DNA of 62,616 nt, filler included. It is 19 parts of 19 records of this genome, joined end to end, with 100 filler letters (N's around TTAATTAATTAA, not from the genome) between each part and the next. Parts side by side here need not be neighbours in the genome. Positions count along the whole stretch, not along the records: positions 56,528 to 60,325 come from SRR36015646_59811; 18 more parts are not named here. The stretch is one strand, 5' to 3'. Both the position numbers and the translations under genes were made by a program. The notes under the pieces were generated by a model. The model worked only from the letters and a program-made list of their open reading frames with translations, made no database searches and was not told the DNA's origin. Below, one piece after another: positions 1-62,616 of this stretch (position 1 is the stretch's first letter; every line of letters begins with the position of its first letter).

Positions 1-26
1 TAGGCACACCTCTACTAAGTGAAAAA

Positions 27-2114
27 ATGATCGCCATGAGCTCGGTGCTGAGGGAACTGCCAAAATGCAAACCGAGAAATCTAGTACATGCCGGTCGACT
101 TCAATTTTTTGTCCCCGCGTGGGAATTCATAACTACAAACAGTTGGGTGATAGACACCATAAAGGGCTACACCATAGAATTTCAAACTGTTCCCCCCTTC
201 AATGGGGTGAAAGAGACATTCAATGCTGTAAACAAATTGCAAGAAAATATTTTTCAGAAGGAGATAGACACACTCCTGGAGAAAGGTGCAATAGAGGAGG
301 CAAGAGCCCCCCTACTGGAGGGACATTACAGTCATCTGTTTCTTGTCCCGAAGAAAACCGGAGACAATCGCCCAGTCATAAACTTAAAATCATTAAACCA
401 TTACATAAGGGTCTTCAAATTTCGACTTCTGACAATACCGGAAATTTTTCCTCATATAAAGGAAGGGGACTGGGCAATCACGATAGACCTAAAAGATGCA
501 TATTTTCATCTTCCGATCTCCCGTGTACATCGGAAATACTTGCGCTTCCAGTGGAAGGGCACCGTCTACCAATTTGTTTGTCTTCCTTTCGGAATTTCAA
601 CGGCTCCGCGAGTTTACACAAAAATAATGCAACCAATATTAGAATTCTGCCGCAAATTGGGCCTAAGAATATTCATTTACATAGACGACATTTTGATACT
701 AGCCAGTTCTCAAGAAGAGACAATTCAATACAAACATTTTGTACTAGAACTACTAAAAACACTGGGCCTGACAGTGAACATGAAAAAGTCTCAACTAGAA
801 CCAAGACAGGAAGTGGAATATCTCGGCTTCCTGTTCGATCTCAAAAATGGATTAATACAAATACCACAAAAGAAAAGAGATCTAATTGTACAGAAGTCAG
901 AAGAGTTACTGAAAACACAACATCCAACTCTTCGGCACATTCTATCAGTAATGGGGTACTACACAAGTACCTTTATTGCGAACCCATTGGGCAGGGCTCA
1001 TTTTCGCAACCTACAACAATGTTACCTAAAGTCTTTTCGGGGTCACAAGTCTATAGGGACTACAAAAACCCTTCTTACAACTCAGGCTATTCAAGATGTG
1101 CAATGGTGGATGAAATCACTCATTCACCACAAGGGTGCTCTCATGAAAAAACGACAAACTCAATTCACTGTGACCACAGATGCCTCCCTTCAGGGTTGGG
1201 GAGCACACTGTCAAGACCAAATGGCTCAGGGCCTCTGGTCAGAAGAAGAGAGCACACGGCACATAAATTTTCTAGAAATGAGTGCAGTCCTTCTAGGACT
1301 CAAATCATTCCAAAACCTTTTACAGGGATCCAATGTCTTAGTACAAACGGACAATTTCACAACAGTTCAATACCTGAACAAAATGGGGGGCACAAGATCG
1401 ACATCATTGTGCCAGTTAGCCCTCAAAATAATAACATGGTGTCAGGATCAGGGCATACAACTTCAGTTGAAGCACATTGCGGGAACAGAAAATACGATAG
1501 CGGATCGGCTATCAAGGGAATATGTAGACATAAAAGAATGGGCCCTACACCAGCAGGTAGCATGTCAAATGTTCAAAATATTCGGAACACCGCAAGTAGA
1601 CCTGTTTGCGAGTATGAACTCCCACAAACTACCAGCTTATTTTTCATGGCAGACAGACATGCAGTCCGCAGGGACAGATGCACTGAAACAGGAATGGAAC
1701 GGAATTTTTGCTTACGCATTTCCGCCAATTCCACTAATCCCGCGTGTACTACAAAAGATTCGGGACTCGCAGAATTGCCAGGTACTACTGGTAGCCCCAT
1801 TTTGGCCAGCAAGACCATGGTTTCTACATCTAACCAGTCTACTGTACAGCAATCCGAAAATGCTACCGGTGAAAATGAATCTTCTATCATCTCCCCTATT
1901 AGGCCGTGTCCCATTCAAACAAATACAAATGTTAAAACTGACCGTTTGGCCAGTTACGGGGAACACATCCTTGATTTCGACTTATCACCAAGATCCCGAG
2001 CAATTATACACGCATCTTGGCGTGAAGGCACTGAACGGCAGTATTCATCAGCATGGAATAAGTGGCAATCATTTTGTGATAGGCAGCAAATTGTTGCCAT
2101 TGACGCTCCTGTAA
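27..2114 (+). CDS. pol: DIRS reverse transcriptase - RNase H - DNA N6-adenine methyltransferase-like protein
   Basis: RT motifs IDLKDAYFH, LPFG and IYIDD; RNase H motifs TDASLQGWG, HINFLE, TDN and NTIADRLSR; MT-like motifs VDLFAS, YAFPP and APFWPARPWF. The frame is open back to the window start. Confidence 0.93.
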   Translation: MIAMSSVLRELPKCKPRNLVHAGRLQFFVPAWEFITTNSWVIDTIKGYTIEFQTVPPFNGVKETFNAVNKLQENIFQKEIDTLLEKGAIEEARAPLLEGHYSHLFLVPKKTGDNRPVINLKSLNHYIRVFKFRLLTIPEIFPHIKEGDWAITIDLKDAYFHLPISRVHRKYLRFQWKGTVYQFVCLPFGISTAPRVYTKIMQPILEFCRKLGLRIFIYIDDILILASSQEETIQYKHFVLELLKTLGLTVNMKKSQLEPRQEVEYLGFLFDLKNGLIQIPQKKRDLIVQKSEELLKTQHPTLRHILSVMGYYTSTFIANPLGRAHFRNLQQCYLKSFRGHKSIGTTKTLLTTQAIQDVQWWMKSLIHHKGALMKKRQTQFTVTTDASLQGWGAHCQDQMAQGLWSEEESTRHINFLEMSAVLLGLKSFQNLLQGSNVLVQTDNFTTVQYLNKMGGTRSTSLCQLALKIITWCQDQGIQLQLKHIAGTENTIADRLSREYVDIKEWALHQQVACQMFKIFGTPQVDLFASMNSHKLPAYFSWQTDMQSAGTDALKQEWNGIFAYAFPPIPLIPRVLQKIRDSQNCQVLLVAPFWPARPWFLHLTSLLYSNPKMLPVKMNLLSSPLLGRVPFKQIQMLKLTVWPVTGNTSLISTYHQDPEQLYTHLGVKALNGSIHQHGISGNHFVIGSKLLPLTLL

Positions 2115-3770: not shown

Positions 3771-5878
3771 AACCAGACAGTGTTGTGTATGATCAGGCTT
3801 TACCAGGCCAGCGCCACATTAGTGACAGTTGCATCCCTAATGGTGCGAACATTTCCGCTACCCCTGCTGATGGGCCTACTAATAATGACACTTTTGCAGT
3901 GAAACCAAGTAAAACTTATGCAAAATCATTGAGTGAAAAACAATCCATATATTTTATTGATAAGCGTAATTCAGTGTATATTCAGTTGACAGATAGTGAT
4001 TCTAAGAGCCTAGGTATCGTACCATGCACTAATGCCTTTGTTGATGTAGTTGGACCCAATGCTGTCACACATGTATCTAAGGTAAATTATAAGTTCATAG
4101 TGTATCTTAAATCTGAAGATGATGTAAGAACTTTAATGTTAACTGGTGTCCACATTGGTGGCTATAAAAGAGATGTTAGGCCTGTACATTCACCATATAC
4201 CACAGTTGTTTTATCTAACGTATACCCAGAGGTTGAAAATAATACTATTGTCAATACTTTTAGGGAGTCACTAGGTGTTGAAGTGAATAATATTAAATGT
4301 ATTCCGGCCGGTTTTAGGGATCCAAAACTGAAGCACATTCTTTCATTTAGACGTGAAATACGTTATCTGAAGCCTAGCGATGAACAATGGATTATGCCTG
4401 CAGAGCTTGAGCTGCAGCAAGGGGACCATACATACAAAGTCTATTTATCGGATCCCGGACAGCCAATATGTTTCTTTTGCTTCCAGTTTGGCCACATGCA
4501 ATATAGATGCCCAAGTAAAAAAGCAAGATATGACAAACGAATGCAGGAAGAAAGGAGCGCAGGTACAAATGGATATCGCAACAGAGGAGCAGGATACAAT
4601 AATAGGGACAAACCGTATCACAAAGACCAGCGGGATCGTCAGGATGATGTGATAAGAAGCCACAGTGATCAGAGGCCTAGTGTGGACGAAAATGAAGATG
4701 CCACAAAAAATAATGTCAGCTGTCAGAATGCCAATGGGAAGGAAAAGAATGAAATCACACTGCTGTCCCCACACACCACAACGCCCAAGCTACATGTAGA
4801 TATAAACGAAACAAGCCAAGCAGATGATCCTGACAAGCCAAGAACAGAATCGGAGTGGAAAACCAGTACAAAACATACAAAGCGTAGTCATCGAGGAGCG
4901 GAATTATCAATGTCATCTGAATCTGGCTTGGAAACAAGTAACATGTATGACGTGTTGAACAAAAGTCAGGAGCTGCTTTATGATGTCATTGCAGAAAACC
5001 AAGCTGTGCACGACAAGAGAAAACCCAGCACCAAGAAAAGGAGAAAAGACGTACCTAATCAGACAGACAACAAAGTACAAATTGTCAATGCAGAAATACA
5101 CCAACCCACGGGCCATAATAAAGGTCAACTCTCCATTGCCTGTCAAAATACTGATCGATCCAGAGACATGACACAACTGCAAGAGTTTGTTGGAGACATC
5201 AACCATAACGGGGAAGAAGATCAATCGAAACCAAGAAACAAAGAGCAGGAAAATCATACAGGTATCTGTGATCAATATGAAGAGATGCAAGGTATAGAAG
5301 AAGATACAATAATTATAAATATGACGGACGAAGCAGCTGGTATAGAACAAGCAAGACTCACTGAACAAAAGTGCAGCACTCCGCGAGATATTACCACTGA
5401 CGTCTCACTGACACAGGTACTGAATAACGAATTAGATGGCAATATGTTTAAAAAACCTCCATTACCCAGAAAAATCAAAGACACCATAGAATACGAAGAA
5501 ACATTGGAACTATGCGAAAAGAGTGAAAGTGAGACTGAGTTCTCACAAGAGTCAATCCTAACACAAGATTTGAGTTCTACGGACTCCGATACAATTCATC
5601 CATTAACTAAGCAACAATTGAAAGAAATACTGAATTCGACAAAGGGGAAAAGAAGGGAGTATGTATTTGAACAACTATTGAAACTTACAACTAATATAGA
5701 TGGGCTAGTTGAGCAGCTGAAGTTTGAGAGAAGACACAAACGACTGGATCGAATTATGTGTGACAAGGGGGATGAAAAGAAGGTGGTAAGAAGAATAGAT
5801 TCCCTTTTGAAACACATTAGGAAATCTAGGACTGACACAGGAGGCGAAACACCAATCGGAGATATGAAGTCAATTTAA
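3239..5878 (+). CDS. Tx1/L1-like ORF1 nucleic-acid-binding protein (5' incomplete)
   Basis: VVLSNVYPEV...LSFRRE RRM-like block, CCHC knuckle CFFCFQFGHMQYRC, and a C-terminal helical block (ILTQD...ILNSTKGKR) shared with the ORFs at 18557 and 17726. The listed start is TTG and the frame is open to the contig edge. Confidence 0.88.
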   Translation: MVHTIADSSREDAPSQGIAETGHGVAKQTHDTVAESRHETKICDDAADDVADRGRSVAMLTNAVADPSNAAQLGHVVSNRGNSVAKPTHAVDPSYTAELGHAVADRGRNAAMPTHAIADPSYVAELGPVAADRGNNVAKPTYSVDPSYADELGHVTANHGHSAAKPIPAVAGPSCGAKPDSVVYDQALPGQRHISDSCIPNGANISATPADGPTNNDTFAVKPSKTYAKSLSEKQSIYFIDKRNSVYIQLTDSDSKSLGIVPCTNAFVDVVGPNAVTHVSKVNYKFIVYLKSEDDVRTLMLTGVHIGGYKRDVRPVHSPYTTVVLSNVYPEVENNTIVNTFRESLGVEVNNIKCIPAGFRDPKLKHILSFRREIRYLKPSDEQWIMPAELELQQGDHTYKVYLSDPGQPICFFCFQFGHMQYRCPSKKARYDKRMQEERSAGTNGYRNRGAGYNNRDKPYHKDQRDRQDDVIRSHSDQRPSVDENEDATKNNVSCQNANGKEKNEITLLSPHTTTPKLHVDINETSQADDPDKPRTESEWKTSTKHTKRSHRGAELSMSSESGLETSNMYDVLNKSQELLYDVIAENQAVHDKRKPSTKKRRKDVPNQTDNKVQIVNAEIHQPTGHNKGQLSIACQNTDRSRDMTQLQEFVGDINHNGEEDQSKPRNKEQENHTGICDQYEEMQGIEEDTIIINMTDEAAGIEQARLTEQKCSTPRDITTDVSLTQVLNNELDGNMFKKPPLPRKIKDTIEYEETLELCEKSESETEFSQESILTQDLSSTDSDTIHPLTKQQLKEILNSTKGKRREYVFEQLLKLTTNIDGLVEQLKFERRHKRLDRIMCDKGDEKKVVRRIDSLLKHIRKSRTDTGGETPIGDMKSI

Positions 5879-43239: not shown

Positions 43240-43329
43240 GCATGTCGAAGCAGTAATGCCAAAACTTTTGCATGAAGCGAGAGTAATGCCGAAACCTATG
43301 CATACAGCGAGAGTAATGCTGAGACTATG
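43240..43329 (+). repeat. Three tandem 30-nt units
   Basis: GCATGTCGAAGCAGTAATGCCAAAACTTTT / GCATGAAGCGAGAGTAATGCCGAAACCTAT / GCATACAGCGAGAGTAATGCTGAGACTATG. Confidence 0.85.
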
Positions 43330-46300
43330 TATGCTTATTTTTTGTGGACATTGTTATTATCTGGAGACGTTGCACTTGGCACAGTAGTTGCCTTTAAACA
43401 TGATCCAAATGGTAATATCAAATATGTGTTAGTTAAGTTTGATGATGACCAAACTGGCAAGGAAAGAAGAAAAGAACTAAACTTGGACAAAGAGTATCCT
43501 GGAAAAAATGTAACACCAATAGCAATGCTTGAATTTGACTTTACTCTGAGAGAGAACAGTGCGGCCAAAGCAACTGCAATAAATTTCCCTCTTCGACTAG
43601 CATATGCTACAACAGCTCACAAAATTCAAGGACACACTGTGAAGAAGCCAGACACTCTAATATTAGACCTGAAGTGCTGGCTAGAACCTGCCATGGTTTA
43701 TGTGATGTTGAGCAGAGTGCAGTGCCTTAATCAACTGTTCATACTAGAAACTCTGCCGGAAGAAAAGATAAAACCATTCGCAGAAGCAGTGAATGAATTA
43801 GATAGATTAAACTTGTTGGATATAAGCAAAGCAAAGGAAATACACTCTGGTTTTAAAATTGCTTCACTGAACATCAGATCTATCAAAGCTCATATGGATG
43901 ATATCAAGGCTGACAGGGAGCTTATTTCATCTGATGTAATCTGCCTCCAGGAGACTTGGCTAACGGAAAATGAAGCGTCTCTAGAAAAACTCAAAATAGA
44001 TGGAATGGAAAGTGTCTTCACATGTTTCGGAAAAGGAAAAGGTACTGCTACTTACTTTCCACCTACCTTTACACTGACTGAATCCGTAAAGGATGAATTT
44101 TTTCAACTGACCATGGTAACATCGAGTAATCTGTCGATAATCAACATCTATCAGTCAAGAAAATTAGGTAATTCCGTGCTTAGCCATCTTAGACAATTAG
44201 TCAGTTGTACGGAGAAGTCAATTGTTATTTGTGGAGACCTCAACTTCTGTCAAAGGGACGACAAAAATAATGCATTTGCCAAACTTATGAAGGAAGAAAA
44301 GTTTGTTGCAGCAATAGTACCCCCTGCAGCCACACACATTGATGGAAGATGCTTGGATCAAGTATACGTGCGTTGCCAACCAGATGTGAAGTTGATTAAG
44401 AATGAAATCATACCTTGTTATTTTTCTGATCATGATCAAGTGTACACATACCTGCAGCATACATAGTTTTGCTGTTAGGTTGAAAAATTTCAGTAATCTG
44501 ACAAATAATTTCTATCCGACTTTGTATGCCATAATATGGTTTCTTTTCGCGTTTTTTTTGTGAAAGTCATGCTGACTAAATTTCATGATTAACTATTTCT
44601 ATCCCACATGTTTTCATTTTGTGTTTTTATGAGAGATGTTTCCTTCATCATTTTCATACTTGTGGAGCATATAGTTGCGATCAAAATATTAAACAGTTGA
44701 TTGAGTATATAGTGGACATTTTGCTGAAGGTTGCTCCAACTGACATCTAATTTGCATTCAATTGTTTGAGATTATGTAAAAATAGTTATGTTTTATTTTC
44801 CTTCATTACAGAACATACTGGACTCCAACATCCCCAGTTATTTTCGTCGTTTACTGTGTTTGTTTGTTAGATTAGTGCATGCGACATACGAGTTGATTTT
44901 AATTAATGTTATGCAGCTATTCTACAACATACACACTATAATTATATTGTACTTTGTTTCCTCCCGAAATATATATCAATACATTGTGATTGTTTTTATT
45001 AGCTCGCCTTATTATTTTTGTATGTTCTCATGGTATACGTCTTCAGTAGTTTCATGACGTGAAATGGCCATGGAACAAAATCTTTGCAGTTGTGAACTGT
45101 TTTTCTGCTAAATGAGTGCAAGGCAACAGAACTTTGCACTTTGTACTCCATGGTTTTTGCCTCCATCGGACCTCTNNNNNNNNNNNNNNNNNNNNNNNNN
45201 NNNNNNNNNNNNNNNNNNNTTAATTAATTAANNNNNNNNNNNNNNNNNNNNNNNNNNNNNNNNNNNNNNNNNNNNTTTCTATCTAGTGTAGTTTAGGCTG
45301 TAGGGGGAGGGGACGGTTATCGTGTATCACCCGGAACACCAACGTAGAGGTTGCACTTGAATCTAGAAATTACCACAAGATTGAGGACAAACTGTAAATC
45401 TGACTTCTAGTATCTGTACATTTGGCAAATATTCTCGGATTAGAGAATATCTAACTAACAAATGGTGTGTAACATCATTGTGCCGTGAATACAAATGGTG
45501 CTGAACATTTTTAAATTCACATCTACCATTTTAGCCAAAATTACTTTACTACCTAGTGAGATTTCTATTCAACATAAAATATGCAGCATTCGTACGACGT
45601 TAAAATACCAGACTGTACAATTTAGGCAATACCCTTCGACCCATTATATAAAACCACTACAGTATGCCGGCCCCCACATGATTGCTGTGATTCAATGCCA
45701 CAATTATATAGTATGTACATTTTTATATATACACTAGGTTTACATGATTGTTACCATGGGGGAAGCATGGATAGAACAGATGTACTCAATAAAACACTGA
45801 CCTAGCTACGTTTTTATGTCATATATTCACATCTGTACATTACTGAAAAACTGATTATTATTGCTCGTTCTGACAATACCATATTCCCTACGGGTACGGT
45901 AGTAAAAATGGTGGCTAAGCTGCTACACCAGTACGTAGTAGATTTGTGACTAGTTCTTCAAAAGGCATATAATAATCAGACATGTTCAACTCATGGAAGA
46001 TATAGATTTAGTGGGTTTCCTGAGCACTGCAAGCCTCATACTTTAAATCTAAAAAAAATTACCCTGTATTTTCTGCTTTGTCATTCACAGCCATTTAGTA
46101 AATAACAGAGAATGTTTCAGATTACTTAACTGAACAACCTTTAACACTAATTAATAGACAAACTTAATAGAGCCACTTAGCGCAAGAGCGGTTTTTCTAG
46201 TTTTCGATAAAATTTAGTTAAAGTTCAAATGTTACTCCGAAGTCTATGTACGCAATAAAGTAATATACTACGCACCTGTCTATACGTAAGAAGAATACCT

Positions 46301-51920: not shown

Positions 51921-52121
51921 NNNNNNNNNNNNNNNNNNNNNNNNNNNNNNNNNNNNNNNNNNNNTTAATTAATTAANNNNNNNNNNNNNNNNNNNNNNNN
52001 NNNNNNNNNNNNNNNNNNNNTTTTTTTCCAGGAGCGATGCTCTTTTGTTTAACGAAGTGATGCTGTGTTGTTGAACGTTGAACGCCACCTGTTGTCATCA
52101 GACGTAGCTTCATATACGACA

Positions 52122-53069
52122 ATGGACGAAGAAAGTGATTCTAGTTGTGTTGCTAAGAAAAGAAACTTGTCTGACGATATTGAGCAACAAGCGGGTGCAA
52201 ACAAGAAGAACAATGATGGTACTTTCTGTGCTCTCCCTGGTTTAGGCGATGAGGATTTCGAGGAGTGTGACAACAGCCAACCAACTGTACAAGTGCAACA
52301 TAATGACATCTTGTCACAGGCGTGCACCACCGCGGGTCTGCCTGTCATCCCACCGACGGGCGCTACGGTTACAAATGAAAGGATTCTAGAGGTGCTTCTA
52401 GATATGAAAAGCAGTGTAGATCACAAGCTTGGTTTAGTGGAGCGCAGGCTAAAAATTTTCGAAACAAACTTTGAATTAATGGAACGCCGCATGCAAAATC
52501 TTGAGAGTGAGACTGACACCCAGAGGAAAGAGAGGGAGCGGCTGAAATCAGATGTTTCTGAAATGCAGGCTAGTTATGCTACGGTGGCCGCCGACTTAGC
52601 TGATGTGAAAAGCTCTACTTTGGAGGTGAAGGACAAGCTACAGAACACAGATAATTTGAGTTTGGGTTTGATTATCTCGAATTTACCACAGACTGATGCA
52701 GAGAACACTGTTGACGTTGTGAATGCACTTGTCAAAAATGGGCTTAAGTTACAAGATGTCAAGATAATTAAAGCTGAGCGCCTGTTCTCCAATGTCAATG
52801 AGCGTAGAAAGAAGAGACCACCCATCATAAAAGTGACATGTCAGTCTAAAGATGACAGAAGCAAAATACTGCGAGCTAAAAAACAATTACGTGACCAGGC
52901 TCAATACAAAAAAGTGTTTATAGACGTAATGAAAACAGTGGAACAGCAAATCCACGATGCAAACATGCGCGCAATAGTTAAACAGTGCGCAAATGATTCA
53001 TTGACTGTTCGAAATGGAAAAGTTCTCTCAAAGACAGATATAACGCATTCTCGGGATACAAGAAGATAG
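52122..53069 (+). CDS. Non-LTR (CR1/L2-like) ORF1: coiled coil + RRM-like C-terminal region
   Basis: Heptad-like region followed by LIISNLP...AERL...PPIIKV...ILRAKKQLR...VFID; lies immediately upstream of an endonuclease frame. ATG at 52122. Confidence 0.8.
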   Translation: MDEESDSSCVAKKRNLSDDIEQQAGANKKNNDGTFCALPGLGDEDFEECDNSQPTVQVQHNDILSQACTTAGLPVIPPTGATVTNERILEVLLDMKSSVDHKLGLVERRLKIFETNFELMERRMQNLESETDTQRKERERLKSDVSEMQASYATVAADLADVKSSTLEVKDKLQNTDNLSLGLIISNLPQTDAENTVDVVNALVKNGLKLQDVKIIKAERLFSNVNERRKKRPPIIKVTCQSKDDRSKILRAKKQLRDQAQYKKVFIDVMKTVEQQIHDANMRAIVKQCANDSLTVRNGKVLSKTDITHSRDTRR

Positions 53070-54167
53070 GTAAACGTCGGGTTCTGGAATCTAAATGGCA
53101 TTTCCACACATCGTAACACAGACAGCTGGAAATTCCGACAGCAATCAATAGTGCAGTACAGTGGCTGTGATATTATTTGTGTAGCAGAGACTCACTTGCG
53201 AGATAAAGATGTTATTCAAATAGACAATTATACTTGGTTTGGGCACAACAGAAGAGAAATTCATGTGAATGCCCGTCGTGGATCCGGTGGAGTTGGAGTT
53301 TTAGTCCATAATCGTCTCCGTGCATCATACATATTGAGTATTTTGGATAGCTCAACCGAAGGTATACTGTGGATTAAGTTTACGTCAAGTGCCAACCGTA
53401 TAAACTGCTTTTTAGTGTGCGTATGTTATTTACCGCCCCAAGAATCAAGCAGGTGCATCGGGAGTAGTACTTTCTTTGATACATTGTTGTCTCAGGTGCA
53501 CAGTTATCAACATTTAGGACCATTCCAAATATGCGGGGACATGAACGCACGATGTGCCGAGGAGCAGGATTTCATAGAAGGAGTCGACTCCATCGTTTTT
53601 CGAGACGTCATCGACGATTACGGGCCCAATAACCACGGCCAGGAATTTGTACAGTTTTTAATAGATAGTAGCTGTTGCATGTTGAACGGACGATCGCCGC
53701 AATGTGTTAAAAATGACTTCACGTGTATATCCGTACGTGGCAGATCTGTTGTTGACTATTGCTGTGTACCTTCAGAACAGCTAAACAGGTATAAAGATTT
53801 TAAAGTGTTAACGGTGTCCGAAATTGTCGACGAAATAGGTTGGCAGCATGGAGCCAGACAGTTACCAGACCATTCATTTCTTATGTGGGAGTTCGAACCA
53901 AATGACAGTGACATGGACAGTGAACAATTGGCAGATCTTAGTTACTCCGAGTCTGAAAAAATAACCCTGTTTCGGCGAAATAATGTACCTGATGGCTTCC
54001 TGGGCAACGAATCTCTACTTGAACACCTCATGGCGAAAATCGAAACGTTGGAAATGGAGGACAACACTCAAACCGACATAAATACATTGTTTTCAGATTT
54101 TTGTGTGGTTGTCAAAAGTGAAATGACAGACAAACTAGAAAGCTTCAAAGTAGATCCGACACCACAC
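53070..54167 (+). CDS. Non-LTR ORF2 APE endonuclease (no AUG start; 3' truncated)
   Basis: VNVGFWNLNG begins right after the ORF1 TAG, followed by DIICVAETHL, SGGVG, CYLPP, GDMNAR, SVVDY and PDH. Confidence 0.9.
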
Positions 54168-54334: not shown

Positions 54335-56819
54335 TATTAATAATAATTGTTATTAATCATAATAATGTTTGGGATATTTTATTTCTTCAAGAGAATAGTT
54401 CAGGAACAAGACAACACAATACACAATACATGCATATATACAAGAACTGGCAATTTTATTTCAATTGTCAAGCAACTACAGCAAGTATGCATATCGACGA
54501 TAGTCACATTAGTTAGTAATTTGATATTTTATTTACAGTGTAGATACACGTATTTACAGACTTGAATTTTCAATTACTGTACAATTTTTTATATTTTATA
54601 AACAATAAACAGTCCAATACTGACATCAAGCACCCGCATAGACAACAATATTAAAAATTGACATGTAGTTCGTTTTTAACAGAGTTACCACAAGTTTGTC
54701 ATGTCGAGCTGAGAAAATTATTGCACATACCGTTACAAAACCATCGTGTCTCCTACCCTATATATATATCTTTAGTCGTTAGGCAAATTTGGGGAAGCAT
54801 TATAAAGGCAATTAACGACTATGAATTAAGGTTAATGAATTGAATCAATGCATGCGGTCTTTAATCGACAATGTGCATGCATCATAATGAAACTCTGTTT
54901 ATGTCGAGCATGAACATTGAACTTTACCTATACATTTATTATTACAGTAGTGTACGGTTAAAACATGTACATGACGTTCACTTTTTTAACGTAGCATATT
55001 TATCTTTCACATTATACACATTTATAATAATTATTAGTTTAATAAATAATATTTAAACGTCTATATTGCTGTTCGTAGAGATTATCTTTAATTTAAGAAG
55101 ATATCTACTCTATCTATTTTAAACTTTAAATTTCACTCAGTTATGTCAAATAATTTAAAAATCCAGCATCGTTAGTATAATCTGCGATATCTCAAGCAGC
55201 CGTCACGAAAAGCTGTCTTAACCAAACTTCTGGTCTAGGATACGTAGAAGACTCCCTTCTACAGAAACTACAAACCAAATACGAGTTATTTTAAAAACTG
55301 AGTGTGGACGCTAATCCATTCACAGAACGATTGAAGTTTAAGTTAATCTATATTGCTATAATAGATGTAACAACCAGCATTGTGTTGGCTTAATAAAAGC
55401 TTCAAAGATAACTTCATATTTTAACAAAGTGGTGGACACGATGGTAACTACATGTACATGTATATAAATATACGGATTTTATCCAAATTAATATATTATA
55501 AAACGTGCTTCCGATTAATTGTTATTGAATAATAACAAAACAGCAAAACACAAGAAGCCTTTCAACTGCTATTAGTAATAATATTAATATTATTATCACA
55601 AGACTAGGCCTATACCTGTAGCTAAGCCTCATACTTATATTTTCTCTGGGACACATATGTACATTATATGCTATACGAAATATGAAGTGAAACAGCTTGC
55701 TCTTAATGCAATGCGTCCTTAAAAATCATGCAGACAATTATATAGGCTATACTGCTGCAACAATTTTCTATGTTATTTATGACAAGCACTAAACATGTAA
55801 AATACTAAAGTTGCAAATGTTGCCGGCACCAGACAACAAGCAATGGCAGATGCTTTTTAAGCTGTGCTGTGTTCTACTCAAAGAATAGCTATGCTATATA
55901 TGTGCATGTTTGCATTTGTCAGTTAAAATGTGGAAGAAATTAATTCCATCAGAATGGTAAAGTATTGTATTTAGCCTACTCAGTACTCAACTTTACACTA
56001 ACAATCGGCAATCGACACAAAATTCTTACATTTTCTTGTTCACCAAAAGTGCTAGCATACGTGTAACACCGATTGTATGATATTGGATAACAATTTATAA
56101 CATACATACCTATAATGTATGTCATAAATTAAGTTCGTATAAACAACTTTGTATAATCTCGAATTTACGAAAAACAAATTCCACAATAACTTGTTGCATC
56201 CTTGCCGTCATTCAAATACATTAACGATAACCAATATAATTGGTATAATAGTGTCAGGAATATATTTTATTTGTGGAATTGGTCATTTTGGATGGCATTC
56301 CGGAATTATTGACGCATTTTCTTGTTTACATGTAGCACAAAACGATACTCGATTGGTATTTTGTGCTAAACGCAATGATGATGTTATGTTTTGATTCGGA
56401 ATATAGTAGACCTAGAGATATTACCTANNNNNNNNNNNNNNNNNNNNNNNNNNNNNNNNNNNNNNNNNNNNTTAATTAATTAANNNNNNNNNNNNNNNNN
56501 NNNNNNNNNNNNNNNNNNNNNNNNNNNGGGAATCCCATCCCCACGGACAAGCCTGTAAATTGGCTAAACAAGTTAAGTGCCGGGCGCCGGGGATGTCTTT
56601 CGCACCCTACGATAACAGGTGGGGGTGTTGGAAAAAAAAATACCCATATAGCTGTCTGAAGTTTCCTTGGTGGTCGGATAGTTGAGCCTTATCCTGCTAC
56701 AAATTTACTAATAGTATTGTATAAGTTTTCCTTTTTAGATCAGGCCAGTAGGCCTAATCCTGCTGAGCTGAAAAAGGTTCATTAACTTGCTACCCCAGCC
56801 CTCCTTGGATGCTAGATAC

Positions 56820-57500
56820 TACCTCTGAGATGGTTCATCCAAGTTAAACTGTCATTTTGGCATTTTTTATTTGTCATATAGCTAGTATTACCCCTTCTGA
56901 AATAGTCAGAACAAGCTTTATTATCAATTTGTCATTTTATGAGAGGTCATGGAGCTCCTTTTCACCTTTCTGAGAAGGTCACCCCAAGCTATATTGTCAT
57001 TTTTCCATTTTTCATAAGTCCTGAAGCCAATATTTACCATTCTGAAATATTCCAGTCAAGCTCTATTGTTATTTTGGTATTTTTTATAGGTCCTGAAGTC
57101 AATTTTGTCCCCTCTGAAATAGTCCCACCCAGCTATTCTGTTATTCTGGTCTTTTTCAAGTGTCATGGAGCTCATTTGGACCATTCTGAGCTGGCTCAAA
57201 CCAGTATACTATTATTTTTGGATTTTTCATTGGTCCTGAAATTAATATTAGCCATTCTAAAATAGGCAAATCAAGCTCTATTGTTATTCTGGAATTTTCC
57301 ATGGGGCCTGAGGCCAATTTTGACTATTCTGAAATAGTCAACCCCAGCTATATTATCATTTTGATCCTTTTCATGTGTCCTGAGGCTCATTTATACTATT
57401 CTGAGCTGGTCAAAACCAGCTCTATTATATTTTTACCATTCTGAGCTGGTCCAACCCAGCTATATTCTTATTTAGGCCGGTATAGGCTTTTTCTGACCAT
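56820..57500. repeat. Degenerate 72-nt tandem repeat, about 9-10 copies
   Basis: TCTGA-like anchors at 56824, 56896, 56969, 57041, 57113, 57185, 57256, 57328 and 57400, each followed by CAAGCT/CCAGCT-ATT. Confidence 0.9.
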
Positions 57501-58355
57501 TAGGCATGTAAGTCTGACTATGCTTTAGCTAGGAAATTCTAGTTCCAGTGCTGTTTGCCCTCTCATTAGTTGTTGATTGAATGGGGCCTGGCCATACTGG
57601 GGTGTAATAATCAATTGATAGTGCTGTGGCCCCATCCAGGTCTGCTACTTGTTAATATGCTATTTAGGTAGGGGTGTGGGTAGAGCTAGTAAAGTCATGA
57701 AGGAGCCAGAAAGTAGGCACCCCCTTATGAGGGTTGTGAGTTTGGATAGGGGTGTGAAATGGTTTGCTTATGAGTATATACCACTGGTTAAGTGTTCCTT
57801 GGGTCCTAAGGATGTGTCGGGTGGGGTTTGTTAGTGTATACAGGATGATTCTCACCGTTCAAGGGTTTTTTAATGGAATGGTTGTATCCCTTCCCATAGG
57901 GGTGTGAAATTGGATATGGGTCTAAACTGGTTTATCAGCGGTGTGGTTTAAGATAGGGGGGTGTGAGTGGGTTTGTGTATGGGTATTTTCCATTGGGTAG
58001 GTGTCAATTGGTTAATTGGCTATGTCAGGTGCAGGTTGGAATGTGTCCATGGTCCACCTCCTCATAAAGCGCTAAAAAATTGGTCCCCTCACTCCCATGA
58101 GGGGTGTTGGTTTCAGTAGGGGTGTTAGTTAGTTAATGGGTGGGTACATTGTAGACACATAAATTATTATAGTTCCACATTCATTACCTTGGTAGTTTAA
58201 ACTAGGTAAACCTTTCTTTATTGGCTATGTTAAGCAGTTTATTAATATACATTGCGATTGTACACCTTTTTATACACGTTTTTTTTGTTATTTTTTATTT
58301 TTTGGTCTTTTCTTTACCCACGGTATGTCTTTACGGTAGTTTTCTTTTATTTACA

Positions 58356-58910
58356 TCAGTTTGGTAGCTTCGCGGTTTCTTGTAGATTCTCTTTCATCAT
58401 CTGTGTTCCTACCTCATCTAGATGAACACCATCCCGGTATTGTTCCGATGGGGATCTCCTCAGGTTTTTCAAGGGTTTACATACTATGTATCTAACCCAA
58501 TGGAGTCCCATCCTCCTAGCCAGTTTTATAGTCTTCTTTGATACCACCGCCATTTCCCTATTCGCCTTCATCACCGTACGGGCCGTTAGTCTGGGGATGA
58601 TCCGGTGGTAATATATTGTGGTTTGTGGGAAAGCATTTTTAAGTTTCCGTATCAAGTCCATAGCCCTTTGTGCTAACATTGTGGGATGGTTTCCTCGTCC
58701 ACAATCGTTGCTTCCTATGTGTAGGATTACTTTCCGGATGTTCTGTGGATTCAATTTCAGGAGAAAGTGGTTAATTACCTCCATAACCCTGTCGATTTTC
58801 CCTCCACTGATAGATATCGTCCCCACTTCTTTGCTGTTGAACGTTAGTAGTTTAAGTAATGAACTCCCTATGCAAAATTGTGGTACATTTGTCAGTGATA
58901 TGACAGTATT
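58356..58910 (-). CDS. SGNH/GDSL-type hydrolase (start codon unresolved)
   Basis: Extending the listed ORF upstream gives block I FCIGSS; block II SISGG, block III HIGSND and block V DGVH follow. AATAAA signals lie downstream on the same strand. Confidence 0.82.
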   Translation of the reverse strand, partial: NTVISLTNVPQFCIGSSLLKLLTFNSKEVGTISISGGKIDRVMEVINHFLLKLNPQNIRKVILHIGSNDCGRGNHPTMLAQRAMDLIRKLKNAFPQTTIYYHRIIPRLTARTVMKANREMAVVSKKTIKLARRMGLHWVRYIVCKPLKNLRRSPSEQYRDGVHLDEVGTQMMKENLQETAKLPN

Positions 58911-58991
58911 TCACCCAGAAATATCTGCCGTTGACGAATAGTCGTGTAGACTCCACTTTCCTGTATGTTATTCTCTAGTGCGTCCTTTATT

Positions 58992-59119
58992 CACGTGGTT
59001 TTCCGCGCGTCCGTAATGGACCGGTCATTCATCGATAAAAAATCCTGCTGCTCTGTGATTGGCCCCCGCTCCGGCCGCCTCTCCTGTGATTGGTTGTTTT
59101 ATTTCCACTTTTTCACGTG
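58992..59119. promoter_or_regulatory. Putative (possibly bidirectional) promoter with two CCAAT boxes flanked by two E-boxes
   Basis: CTGTGATTGG occurs twice (ATTGG at 59058 and 59089, 31 bp apart) around a GC-rich spacer; CACGTG at 58992 and 59114. Confidence 0.6.
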
Positions 59120-59186
59120 CGTCGTGGCTCGTGTTTTATTCGGATGGGGAGTCTTTCCACTCCGTATTACTGTTTCCCACTTCAAC

Positions 59187-59546
59187 ATGTCCGCAGCTCT
59201 ACAGGAACGTACGCATTTGGAGAGGGAAGCATTGGAAGAGCTCTCCGCCCTCATCCAGAAGCGCCTCAAAGCTGCCCGGCTGGTGAGGCAGGGAGACCTT
59301 GACATTCTGGTCTCTATCGAACAAGATCTGTCGCCACCCGGTATTATAGACCCCGAAATACGTGAGGGTATCGAACTCCTGCGGGATCAATTAATCCAGG
59401 ATGTTCACCGCCAGACCAGAGTCATAGGGATCCGCGAGCAGAACCATGTTCAACTATGTCCCCGCCTATTCCAACTTCAGGCCATGTGCAAGTTATGGAT
59501 TGTGACCGCCCGCATGGAGGTTGAGTTGTCTGGTGCCACCCCGTAG
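59187..59546 (+). CDS. Highly divergent, tail-less histone H3-like histone-fold protein (119 aa)
   Basis: Start context TTCAAC-ATG-TCC. By-eye colinear alignment to H3 residues 47-126: ALEEL/[32 protein letters not shown], and [41 protein letters not shown]. A histone stem-loop lies downstream. Confidence 0.6.
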   Translation: [119 protein letters not shown]

Positions 59547-59648
59547 ATCCATCTGGTAGCAGGAAGGGCCAGACGACCGGCATGCCACTTACTGCATTTC
59601 CAACCCCGAAGACCGAAAACCATGAGAGAAAACCCCACAAAACCCCAC

Positions 59649-59669
59649 GGTTCTTTTAAGAGCCACTCA
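59649..59669 (+). terminator. Replication-dependent histone mRNA 3' stem-loop
   Basis: GGTTCT-TTTA-AGAGCC forms a 6-bp stem with a 4-nt loop (GGYYYU-UYUH-ARRRCC). It has an A/C-rich 5' flank and an ACTCA 3' flank, and lies 102 nt after the stop. Confidence 0.85.
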
Positions 59670-59848
59670 CAGTCTAAAACTGGATTATCTTTTCGCTTTG
59701 TTTGAGTTTGATTATTTGGGAATATCTTATTTTATTTGGTTGTAACTTTTACATGCTGATTTTTAATCTGCACAATTACTTAGGAGTCTTTTGAGCCAAA
59801 TTAGGCGTAAATAGAATCCATTACTTAAGTAAAAAAATCCGTTTGCAA

Positions 59849-60175
59849 GTTTTCTAGTGCTAAGGGTGGTACACAGTATCGAATCAGAAGACACATATTG
59901 TTATTTCGTATTTATCCATTTTAATTTTTACAGTGCAACTTTATTCTTCACTAAATTTTCTAGTGCTAAGTGTTGTACCCGGTGCCAATCCGAAGCACAC
60001 ACACACACACGCACACATTGTTAGTTCGTATTTTTCCATTTTTCTACCGTATCGGGTCAGAATTACACACATTGTTCCAAAAAGTTTTCCAGTGCTAAGG
60101 GTGGTGCACAGTATTGAATCAGACCCCACACATTGTTAGTCCGTATTTCCCCCTTTTTAATTTTGTAGTGTAACC
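59849..60175. repeat. Three degenerate direct repeats of about 105-130 nt
   Basis: TTTTC(T/C)AGTGCTAAG(G/T)GT(G/T)GT...GAATCAGA...CACATTGTTA(G/T)TTCGTATTT recurs near 59849, 59955 and 60084; the middle copy carries a (CA)n run. Confidence 0.85.
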
Positions 60176-60738
60176 TTGTTTATTACTTATAATTATGTAT
60201 GGGTTTAGTTGAGGAAACTAAATCAGAAATTGATTTGTTTTATTATATCCGTTGTCGTATTCTATTTTTAGAAGAATTTATAAAAAAAAAAAAAACGTGT
60301 TTTTGCAAAATTTTCGTTATTTTTANNNNNNNNNNNNNNNNNNNNNNNNNNNNNNNNNNNNNNNNNNNNTTAATTAATTAANNNNNNNNNNNNNNNNNNN
60401 NNNNNNNNNNNNNNNNNNNNNNNNNTCCCATCCCAAAAAGACGAAAAAATAAAAATAAAACAAAATAAAAAGTAAAAATTGATAAATTAGTTTGCTACCA
60501 TAAAGACAGACCCATTTATGCTCATATGTTATAGTTAATTAGGAGTTTTAGCTACTTTGTAGGGTGACGACTTGTGTGACAGGGCACAACACTTTAAAAC
60601 CACAACTAAATCACATAATAGATGGCACTAGTAGTTTGGAAGCCATAATATTACTTGAATATGTGGGACCCACTTTGTTTCTAAGCTTGGGGCCTGAATA
60701 AGTATTGGAAAAAGTCATCGGTATGTCTTCTATTATAG

Positions 60739-61702: not shown

Positions 61703-62616
61703 GGAAAAAGCAGTTCAAGAACATACAGTACCATTCCTGCATGGGAATATGAACACACTTTCGAGCCATACGCAGTACAGCCAAGAACCTCGTACTCTTG
61801 GACAGATGTAAATGGAAGGATTGTTGATAATCCAAGGGACTCATACTCCGCCCAAGCAGTGTATAAGGGGGAAGTTTTGGGGAAAATGAACGATCTCCAA
61901 TTTCGCAACCCCCAGACTTTTGTAGCTGGCTCATTCCATACCCATGCAAAAGAATGGGAAAACTATCTAGGCTTATTACCTGAATTTGCAGAAGTCTTAG
62001 ATTGGATAAAACACAAAGTAAACGTGGAAAGGTACTTTGTAAGATATACGGGAACTTTTAAACGATTTAACTTGAGTAGCGACTCTCCACCACCAGTAAT
62101 CTTGCCAAATAGTCAGAGTTGTAAAGATTTTTCCAAATTCATTACGGAGACGTTACTAGATAGAATTAAAATAGGAGCTCTAGGTATTTGGGGGAAGGTT
62201 GGAGAGGTAGCGCCACCGATGTTAGTTTTGCCCCTGACAGTAGAGCCAAAGAAACCGCGCTTGTGTCATGATCAAAGATATTTAAATTTGTTCGTGAAAG
62301 ACAGACCTTTTAAGCTAGAAGGTTTAGAAAACGTACCAAGATATGTAAGAGAAGGTACATTCATGACTACTATGGATGACAAATCAGCGTATGACAATAT
62401 GCTAATGTCAGAAAACAGTTACACTTACATGGGTCTTGAATGGGCAGGATACTATTTATTCTGGAAAACCCTACCATTCGGTTTTAAGTTATCAGCTTAT
62501 ATATATCAGTCGGTCGCAATGGCAGCAGCCCACATTTATAGAGAGTTGGGTGTTCCTACTACCCAATACATCGATGATAGACATATAGGAGAACTTCTTT
62601 TAGAGCATGGGAATGA
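61703..62616 (+). CDS. pol: DIRS-type reverse transcriptase, running off the window end (absent from the ORF track)
   Basis: Manual translation gives FRNPQTFVAG...EW, LPLTVEPKKPRLCHDQRYLN, MDDKSAYD, LPFGFKLSAYIY and QYIDDRH (YIDD at 62567-62578). No protease precedes the RT; the first ATG is at 61886. Confidence 0.9.

Follow-up and report, generated by a model that had tools for sequence, protein, structure and literature searches.

Within the 62.6-kb stretch of DNA that we analysed (hereafter, the window), an intact open reading frame (ORF) of 119 codons with coding-like codon usage is preceded by a pair of inverted CCAAT boxes and followed by a histone-type stem-loop that the Rfam histone model matches below its gathering score, and the encoded protein has no measurable likeness to a histone. 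We tentatively interpret this unit as an orphan, lineage-restricted, intronless non-histone gene built on the chassis of a histone gene, a reading that would imply cleavage by the SLBP/U7 pathway and coupling to S phase. We infer that such a gene would be transcribed, processed at its hairpin, coupled to the cell cycle, and translated into protein. The finding is less spectacular than the one first proposed from the sequence, and it is moderately interesting because the pairing of ORF and hairpin is unlikely to have arisen by chance.

The window consists of 19 short contigs (2–8 kb) joined via spacers of the form N44-TTAATTAATTAA-N44, and the ORF-hairpin unit lies on a contig of 3.8 kb (positions 56528–60325) that has no physical linkage to the rest of the window. 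Transposon ORFs, including reverse transcriptases, endonucleases, and large polyproteins, are present on nearly all of the contigs, and a single copy of the unit is visible, on its 3.8-kb contig among repeats. With a G+C content of 0.515, the unit is richer in G+C than every contig in the window (0.31–0.45). The idea of a CpG island was dropped because the observed/expected CpG ratio of the unit (0.87) is not outside the spread of the window (0.69 ± 0.19), even though CpG is strongly depleted in the left flank. A neighbouring, divergent open frame contains a GDSL/SGNH esterase domain; this frame has no start codon ahead of the domain start, a word-index search at near and longer lengths returned zero relatives of it, and it probably lies outside the unit. 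ORF, Pfam, pattern, and Rfam scans identified no further hairpin or histone ORF elsewhere in the 62.6-kb window, and, as far as the window shows, the unit is not located in a histone cluster. Coordinates of the features are collected in Table 1.

Table 1. Features of the ORF-hairpin unit and its neighbouring open frame (positions along the window)
Feature	Position	Strand	Basis or remark
Neighbouring divergent open frame with GDSL/SGNH esterase domain	58356–58910	−	PF13472, E 2.8e-9
TTCACGTG, E-box-like, first copy flanking the CCAAT pair	58990–58997	+	Motif count
CTGTGATTGG, inverted CCAAT box, distal copy, 125 nt 5′ of ATG	59053–59062	+	10-mer count
CTGTGATTGG, inverted CCAAT box, proximal copy, 94 nt 5′ of ATG	59084–59093	+	10-mer count
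TTCACGTG, second copy flanking the CCAAT pair	59112–59119	+	Motif count
TTTTATT, T/A-rich, 47–53 nt 5′ of ATG	59134–59140	+	Sequence read
ORF, 119 codons plus stop, protein P0001	59187–59546	+	ORF scan; acidic, predicted all-helical
3′ UTR, 102 nt, closing with direct repeat AAAACCCCAC ×2	59547–59648	+	Sequence read
Histone-type stem-loop, GGTTCT-TTTA-AGAGCC	59649–59664	+	RF00032, 28.2 bits; local minimum-energy fold
3′ flank, ACTCA	59665–59669	+	Sequence read
AAAACTGGA, 7/9 purines, sole candidate histone downstream element	59676–59684	+	Purine scan

The hairpin GGTTCTTTTAAGAGCC, which ACTCA follows, lies 102 nt 3′ of the ORF stop, so the spacing given in the earlier, sequence-only reading of this DNA was confirmed. 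The stem has 6 bp, including one U-G pair, the loop is TTTA, and the 5′ flank is rich in A and C. That reading had also described the hairpin as an SLBP-binding element, and the Rfam family RF00032 (Histone3) aligned to positions 59644–59688 at 28.2 bits, short of the family’s gathering score of 34; a scan at the gathering threshold was accordingly empty. The E-value of the match was 5.3e-6 when calculated on 501 nt and 6.7e-4 when the whole window was searched against all 4227 Rfam families, and the hairpin was the sole match of any Rfam family with E ≤ 1 in the whole window. An identical 16-nt hairpin belongs to a bona fide H4 gene (metagenome locus L020, described below) and scored 28.9 bits with RF00032; thus, a sub-threshold score such as 28.2 bits is normal for this variant when the hairpin is functional. 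Of the hairpin tests, the covariance model is the one that informs, unlike folding energy, which was unremarkable (z = −1.42; equalled by 21 of 200 shuffles), or a loose IUPAC hairpin pattern, which is not special at 0.56 expected occurrences per window.

Based on the known histone pre-mRNA pathway, cleavage would be expected after ACTCA, at approximately position 59669. The interval from the stop codon to the hairpin contains neither AATAAA nor ATTAAA, and both are likewise absent from the first 150 nt 3′ of the hairpin. No 9-mer with at least eight purines was found at +6 to +45 of the stem, and the same was true of the H4 control gene at L020. As far as sequence can show, the hairpin looks genuine and is correctly oriented and spaced relative to the intact ORF that precedes it.

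The ORF begins at an ATG at position 59187 with A at −3 and ends with a stop codon at 59544–59546, giving a coding length of 357 nt, and this bears out the intact ORF of 119 codons and the good start context that had been claimed for it. By itself, the length of the ORF is modest evidence of a gene: ATG-initiated ORFs of at least 119 codons occurred on either strand in 157 of 2000 dinucleotide shuffles of positions 58928–59727. Its placement is stronger evidence, as a plus-strand ATG-initiated ORF of at least 119 codons that ended 20–200 nt 5′ of the stem was found in 32 of 3000 shuffles when the 1000 nt upstream were shuffled, and in 66 of 3000 when positions 58928–59648 were shuffled. On these counts, the pairing of ORF and hairpin is unlikely to be due to chance.

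We also scored codon usage with a log-odds model for which the window’s 14 longest ORFs served as the training set; as a caveat, each of these is a transposon gene. Among the six frames, the frame of the ORF alone had a positive score, and the other five were negative. In a second scoring, for which stops were taken out of the model, the ORF reached 0.023 per codon; of 32 spurious open frames (−0.124 ± 0.077), 31 scored lower, and within a set of 103 true coding chunks (0.089 ± 0.076) the ORF would rank at the 19th percentile. The G+C content of the ORF by codon position is 0.67, 0.36, and 0.61. The open frame continues 5′ of the ATG (58950–59186), where its score is −0.278, which indicates ATG 59187 as the likely start. 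An open frame of 198 codons is unusual in itself (10 of 2000 shuffles); however, a 193-residue protein starting from ATG 58965 was rejected because the upstream part scores as non-coding and contains the CCAAT boxes. The only Pfam match of this longer version was to ParD (E = 0.15). Judged by these sequence features, the ORF still looks like a gene, yet it is unproven.

Upstream of the ATG, the 10-mer CTGTGATTGG is present in two copies 31 bp apart, and these are its only occurrences in 62.6 kb (0.18 expected; two of 100 shuffles attained two copies). We take the paired CCAAT boxes to be putative NF-Y sites. The E-box-like motif TTCACGTG occurs four times in the window compared with 1.84 expected, and two of the four copies, at 58990 and 59112, flank the CCAAT pair and are candidate regulatory elements. 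TTTTATT, which lies between the CCAAT pair and the ATG, is possibly a TATA-like element.

Under our preferred reading, transcription would initiate 3′ of the two CCAAT boxes, producing a pre-mRNA of ~0.5 kb that includes the 357-nt ORF and the 102-nt 3′ UTR without a poly(A) signal. SLBP would then bind the hairpin, and the U7 snRNP machinery would cut after ACTCA (~59669), leaving a message that lacks poly(A) and whose abundance would track S phase. The predicted product is an acidic, helical protein of 119 residues without detectable kinship to H3 or to any other family.

Searches with the protein sequence revealed no relatives. Pfam yielded no families at E ≤ 10, and phmmer found no proteins at E ≤ 0.001 among 1.84 billion cluster representatives. 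When phmmer was run on every chain sequence of the PDB with a cutoff of E ≤ 10, it identified no histone, and its single match was a CpaE chain (E = 0.018). A word-index search found no relative of the protein, and none was found in metagenome, viral, or prokaryote contigs. The protein has an acidic pI of 5.61 and contains 3 Lys, 12 Arg, 6 Asp, and 12 Glu. Its recognition by a protein language model (Atlas) was 1668, compared with a mark of 2300 that is reached by 91 of 100 proteins of known families, and the best feature score was 0.75.

AlphaFold2, run on the single sequence, predicted alpha-helices at residues 3–32, 37–47, 56–77, and 83–114, albeit with low confidence (pLDDT 58.2). With this weak model, Foldseek returned no match in the PDB at E ≤ 0.001, and its top rows were FAT domains, cytochrome b562, and designed bundles; for VIA-align, run wide, the highest Z was 12.0, with designed four-helix bundles, which is in the common range for helical models. 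Histones were absent among the best 50 rows shown of either search. Given the weakness of the model, the fold searches are no evidence either way. A predicted complex of the protein with residues 25–103 of the L020 H4 scored 0.19, relative to a mark of 0.34, which speaks neither for nor against pairing with H4.

We scanned metagenome contigs with an 18-mer of the window itself and recovered 40 loci (L001–L040), which form 25 groups by flank. Two of the 25 flank groups (L020 and L035) are canonical histone genes, whereas nine have a Tc1/mariner-like transposase C-terminal motif, as defined by an ad hoc motif rule, within 450 nt 5′ of the hairpin. We take these nine groups to be Tc1/mariner-like transposase remnants; the assignment is statistically weak. 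Their transposase-like frames finish in strings such as DQWRKRLKACIRAEGGHFE, and a QQDNAPAHRA.../...NRPYLNPIDY region is kept in L032 and L034. In the PDB, the L032 fragment matched the transposase of Sleeping Beauty best (E = 0.089), with Mos1 next (E = 0.67), and L034 matched DDE_3 at E = 0.075. An identical hairpin is thus seen behind what appear to be decayed Tc1/mariner-like transposase genes in metagenome contigs. Two other loci, L003 and L018, contain a long non-histone ORF that, by eye, is presumably a bacterial phosphoglycerate kinase, and their hairpin match is taken as chance.

In the transposase-type loci, the stop codon is 27–53 nt from the hairpin, and purine-rich runs (for example, GAAAGGAA, GAGAGGAA, AAGGAAAA, and GAAGAAAA) occur at +6 to +14. 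Several of the loci have a second canonical hairpin in tandem, which was not selected by the query; examples are GGCTCTTTTCAGAGCC in L004/25/28 and in L011/39, and variants of the tandem hairpin in L007, L024, and L027. In L036, L025, L008, and L034, long inverted repeats occur on both sides of the hairpin. Ten loci, representing four flank groups, share with the window 23–24 identical nucleotides that consist of the hairpin and ACTCAC; no similarity between the window and the loci extends past ~24–40 nt at the hairpin, and there is none in the rest of the window. Because hairpins of this type lie behind transposase remnants, a histone-type hairpin can be carried by mobile elements and is no proof of a histone gene, which weakens the earlier assertion that the element is essentially restricted to histone mRNAs.

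The sequence-only reading had presented the unit as a histone-type gene with a tail-less, extremely divergent H3 as its product. The stem-loop behind the ORF remains from that proposal, whereas the H3 identity failed every sequence test, and we rejected it. We used as controls the H3 and H4 genes of L020, which form a divergent pair, and the H1 gene of L035. PF00125 matched the control H3 at 8.2e-49, CENP-T_C, TAF, PF00125, CENP-S, and CBFD_NFYB_HMF matched the control H4, and Linker_histone matched the control H1 at 3.1e-23. By comparison with the five histone-fold families found for control H3 and H4, the histone-fold profile search that had been suggested for the 119-residue protein was empty at E ≤ 10; at the same cutoff, PDB sequences gave the CpaE chain alone, and the 1.84 billion representatives contained no match. 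At E ≤ 100, BLASTP aligned no part of the protein with the canonical H3 encoded at L020. A near-gapless threading on H3 had been reported by eye with ~18 identities; we counted 11 when ORF residue i was placed on H3 residue i+29 and five, including T77 on T107, when it was placed on i+30. The best ungapped register had 15 identities, compared with 14.6 ± 1.5 for shuffled ORFs (attained by 247 of 500), and the gapped local score of 28.0 was at the shuffle mean (28.2 ± 5.3). The absence of a Lys/Arg tail was correctly noted, as the protein contains only three Lys, has a pI of 5.61, and does not have an N-terminus of the basic-tail type; its acidity also speaks against H3. The histone-gene architecture of the unit fits an H3 that has kept its histone 3′ end, and in the register of the earlier reading the predicted helices 37–47, 56–77, and 83–114, together with a Pro-rich loop at 48–55, can be fitted loosely to alpha1-L1-alpha2-L2-alpha3, but the last predicted helix has 32 residues, whereas alpha3 of H3 has ~11. 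BLASTP against H4 did align 22 residues with the L1/alpha2 region (E = 0.16 for a single comparison), which also favours a histone-fold protein. Overall, we consider it highly improbable that the product is a divergent H3.

An origin from a frameshifted H4 gene was also considered. The best tblastn match against the 40 loci (E = 0.28) lies inside the L020 H4 gene, at an equal distance from the ATG; this match is in a different frame from H4 and runs through a stop codon. At the DNA level, the H4 coding sequence gave only a 35-nt, non-collinear match, which was attained by 5 and 9 of 500 shuffles, and ungapped identity was ~32%. We treated the similarity as chance.

The main rival, which we judge somewhat less likely than our own reading, is that the hairpin is a relic of a decayed histone orphon or mobile element beside a fortuitous ORF, with motif pairs that are accidental in a patch richer in G+C and with no protein expressed. 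Consistent with this rival, the protein has no relatives and is poorly recognized by the language model, ORFs as long as this one on either strand appeared in 157 of the 2000 shuffles, the hairpin is not followed by a clear purine-rich downstream element, and the contig is otherwise composed of repeats and the start-less esterase fragment. Identical hairpins in decayed transposon remnants elsewhere demonstrate that orphaned hairpins exist. However, a chance ORF with the correct orientation and placement was obtained in only 1–2% of shuffles, coding-like codon usage was confined to the frame of the ORF, neither a histone nor a transposase ancestry can be discerned in the ORF or in any other frame, the match to H4 coding DNA is weak and non-collinear, and the twin 10-mer CTGTGATTGG is positioned upstream at a promoter-like distance. 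Less probable still is that the ORF is cargo, or an accessory gene, belonging to a mobile element with histone-type 3′ end formation, which would resemble the Tc1/mariner-like elements of the metagenome loci; expression of such an element-encoded ORF would be coupled to S phase to the advantage of the element. All other contigs of the window are transposon-rich, nine of the 25 flank groups have the Tc1/mariner-like C-terminal motif 5′ of the hairpin, the hairpin lies within elements bounded by inverted repeats in L036, L025, L008, and L034, and the matches of L032 (Sleeping Beauty, E 0.089; Mos1, E 0.67) and L034 (DDE_3, E 0.075) point the same way, as do the 23–24 nt of hairpin and ACTCAC held in common with ten loci. 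Against these points, the shared ACTCAC comes from a single set of related loci and may be coincidental, likeness to the loci is confined to ~24–40 nt at the hairpin, and the Tc1/mariner assignment is itself statistically weak. Moreover, the unit lacks a transposase remnant, convincing terminal inverted repeats, and a second hairpin: in eight frames of positions 58965–59731 no transposase families were detected, the C-terminal motif is absent from the unit, and the 3.8-kb contig, which may not be long enough to include the two ends of an element, contains as terminal inverted repeats only short (15–29 nt, 74–88%) or low-complexity pairs.

With these rivals weighed, the reading that we tentatively prefer remains that of an orphan gene, non-histone in its product, on the chassis of a histone gene. 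A broader statement, which we regard as possible but rather doubtful, is that a lineage-specific, non-histone gene took over the whole histone expression cassette, including the CCAAT pair, the lack of an intron, and the stem-loop, so that an acidic helical product would be made in step with S phase; together with the hairpin-bearing transposase loci, this would place histone-type 3′ ends outside histone genes in some invertebrates, including in mobile elements that would profit from being active while DNA replicates. To our knowledge, histone-type 3′ end formation has been treated as a private pathway of the replication-dependent histone mRNAs of animals. If our reading is true, a non-histone user of this pathway would provide a natural test of what the stem-loop does alone, both for S-phase coupling and for translation without poly(A), and the protein would be one whose dosage must follow DNA replication. 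If the ORF is accidental beside a relic hairpin, the locus is an ordinary one. The hairpins behind transposase genes in elements bounded by inverted repeats suggest a route to S-phase timing for DNA transposons, and this could matter more than the unit itself. Judging by literature listings and the beginnings of abstracts, which offered no description of histone-type stem-loops in non-histone or transposon genes, the occurrence of the hairpin behind transposase genes appears to be undescribed. One preprint nowhere mentions non-histone genes or transposons (10.64898/2026.10.14.759114), and a figure legend in another mentions non-histone SLBP windows with no detail (10.64898/2026.08.17.745202).

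Compared with the replication-dependent histone genes of animals, the unit is similarly intronless and compact, with CCAAT boxes upstream and short UTRs, and its 16-nt stem-loop likewise has UUUA as the loop, is flanked on the 5′ side by A/C-rich sequence, and lies 102 nt past the stop; with RF00032 it scores like the identical hairpin on a true H4 gene (28.2 versus 28.9 bits). Unlike those genes, it encodes an acidic protein that is non-histone by every sequence test, it has no clear purine-rich downstream element, its Rfam score is below gathering, and there is no histone cluster in the window. The protein resembles H3 variants, including CenH3/CENP-A, in the length of the folded part, in being predicted as helical, and, in the register of the earlier reading, in having a Pro-rich loop at the place of L1. 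It differs from them in having no profile or pairwise similarity, no basic tail, and a pI of 5.6, whereas CenH3s are still recognized by the histone profile. With the hairpin-bearing Tc1/mariner-like loci, the unit shares the identical 16-nt hairpin, an ACTCAC flank (in ten loci), and a non-histone ORF upstream, but it lacks their transposase remnants (27–53 nt upstream), frequent tandem hairpin, downstream purine runs, and inverted repeats. Cell-cycle genes with paired CCAAT (NF-Y) boxes are normally polyadenylated, whereas the unit has a predicted stem-loop 3′ end; like those genes, however, it carries two boxes that are approximately three helical turns apart and lie ~95–135 nt 5′ of the ATG.

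The window (positions 1-62616) comprises 19 contigs of 2-8 kb each, separated by spacers of the form N44-TTAATTAATTAA-N44, and contigs on either side of a spacer have no linkage to each other. Repeats paired across spacers (e.g., I1-I4) are artefacts.

In loci among L001-L040, the 40 metagenome loci that carry the window's own 18-mer, the exact hairpin of the window lies 27-53 nt 3' of decayed frames that we take to encode Tc1/mariner-like transposases, an assignment that is weak (best PDB E-value 0.089; DDE_3 E-value 0.075). Many of these 40 loci represent one site present in several records. A second canonical histone hairpin often stands beside the window-type hairpin in the transposase-like loci, with purine-rich runs 3' of the hairpin, and in four loci the hairpin lies within elements bounded by inverted repeats. 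These features suggest DNA transposons that would use histone-type 3' end formation.

The open frame in locus L007 includes RTNNDVEGWHHALN, presumably typical of MULE-type transposases; a Pfam search gave no confirmation of this reading. Besides the window-type hairpin, L007 carries both another hairpin (GGCTCTTTTTAGAGCC) and a run of CCAAGAAAA. In locus L016, the window's hairpin follows an intact non-histone ORF by 73 nt, and two extra GCCCTTTTCAGGGC hairpins occur immediately 5' of this window-type hairpin. The Pfam search found no family for the product of this ORF. The protein is present in Atlas, and its predicted model is similar to that of a cluster of hypothetical eukaryotic proteins labelled Cnidaria (TM 0.64), as well as to TBP-like and RnlA N-terminal folds; we treat these likenesses as leads only.

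On the contig that carries the 119-codon ORF, a GDSL/SGNH esterase frame is divergent from that ORF, has no start codon ahead of the domain start, and is followed downstream by an A-rich stretch with AATAAA. A search for relatives of this frame found none. Possible identities for the frame are an exon, a retrocopy, and a piece of a transposon. The tandem array on the same contig sits within a strongly CpG-depleted stretch. Other contigs of the window carry typical transposon genes: a coiled-coil ORF with an Exo_endo_phos endonuclease (PF03372, E-value 1.1e-8) behind it, a reverse-transcriptase fragment (PF00078, E-value 1e-6), and a long frame that, read by eye, appears to encode the helicase/endonuclease of a Helitron-like element.

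Coordinates of features in the window and in the metagenome loci
Feature	Location	Strand	Detail
Esterase domain	window 58356-58910	-	PF13472, E-value 2.8e-9
Tandem array	window 56946-57474		unit length ~72 nt (alternative readings, 143 and 215 nt); left part of contig
Repeat, 106-129 nt	window 59847-60187		3 copies; directly 3' of putative 119-codon gene
Transposon genes	window 52053-54167, 61703-62614, 43276-44466	+	
Open frame	L007:2-391	+	ends 62 nt 5' of hairpin
Hairpins	L007: about 408-443 and 457-472		
Non-histone ORF	L016:5115-5402	+	96 codons
Hairpin region	L016: about 5400-5500		
Hairpins	L020:228-272	-	
	L020:1328-1373	+	
Main hairpin and transposase-frame loci	L004/L025/L028, L008/L013/L021/L038, L011/L039, L012, L027, L032, L034, L036		

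In the divergent canonical H3-H4 pair of control locus L020, each gene has a different hairpin variant (38.0 and 28.9 bits), and that of H4, at 28.9 bits, would escape the Rfam gathering score of 34.
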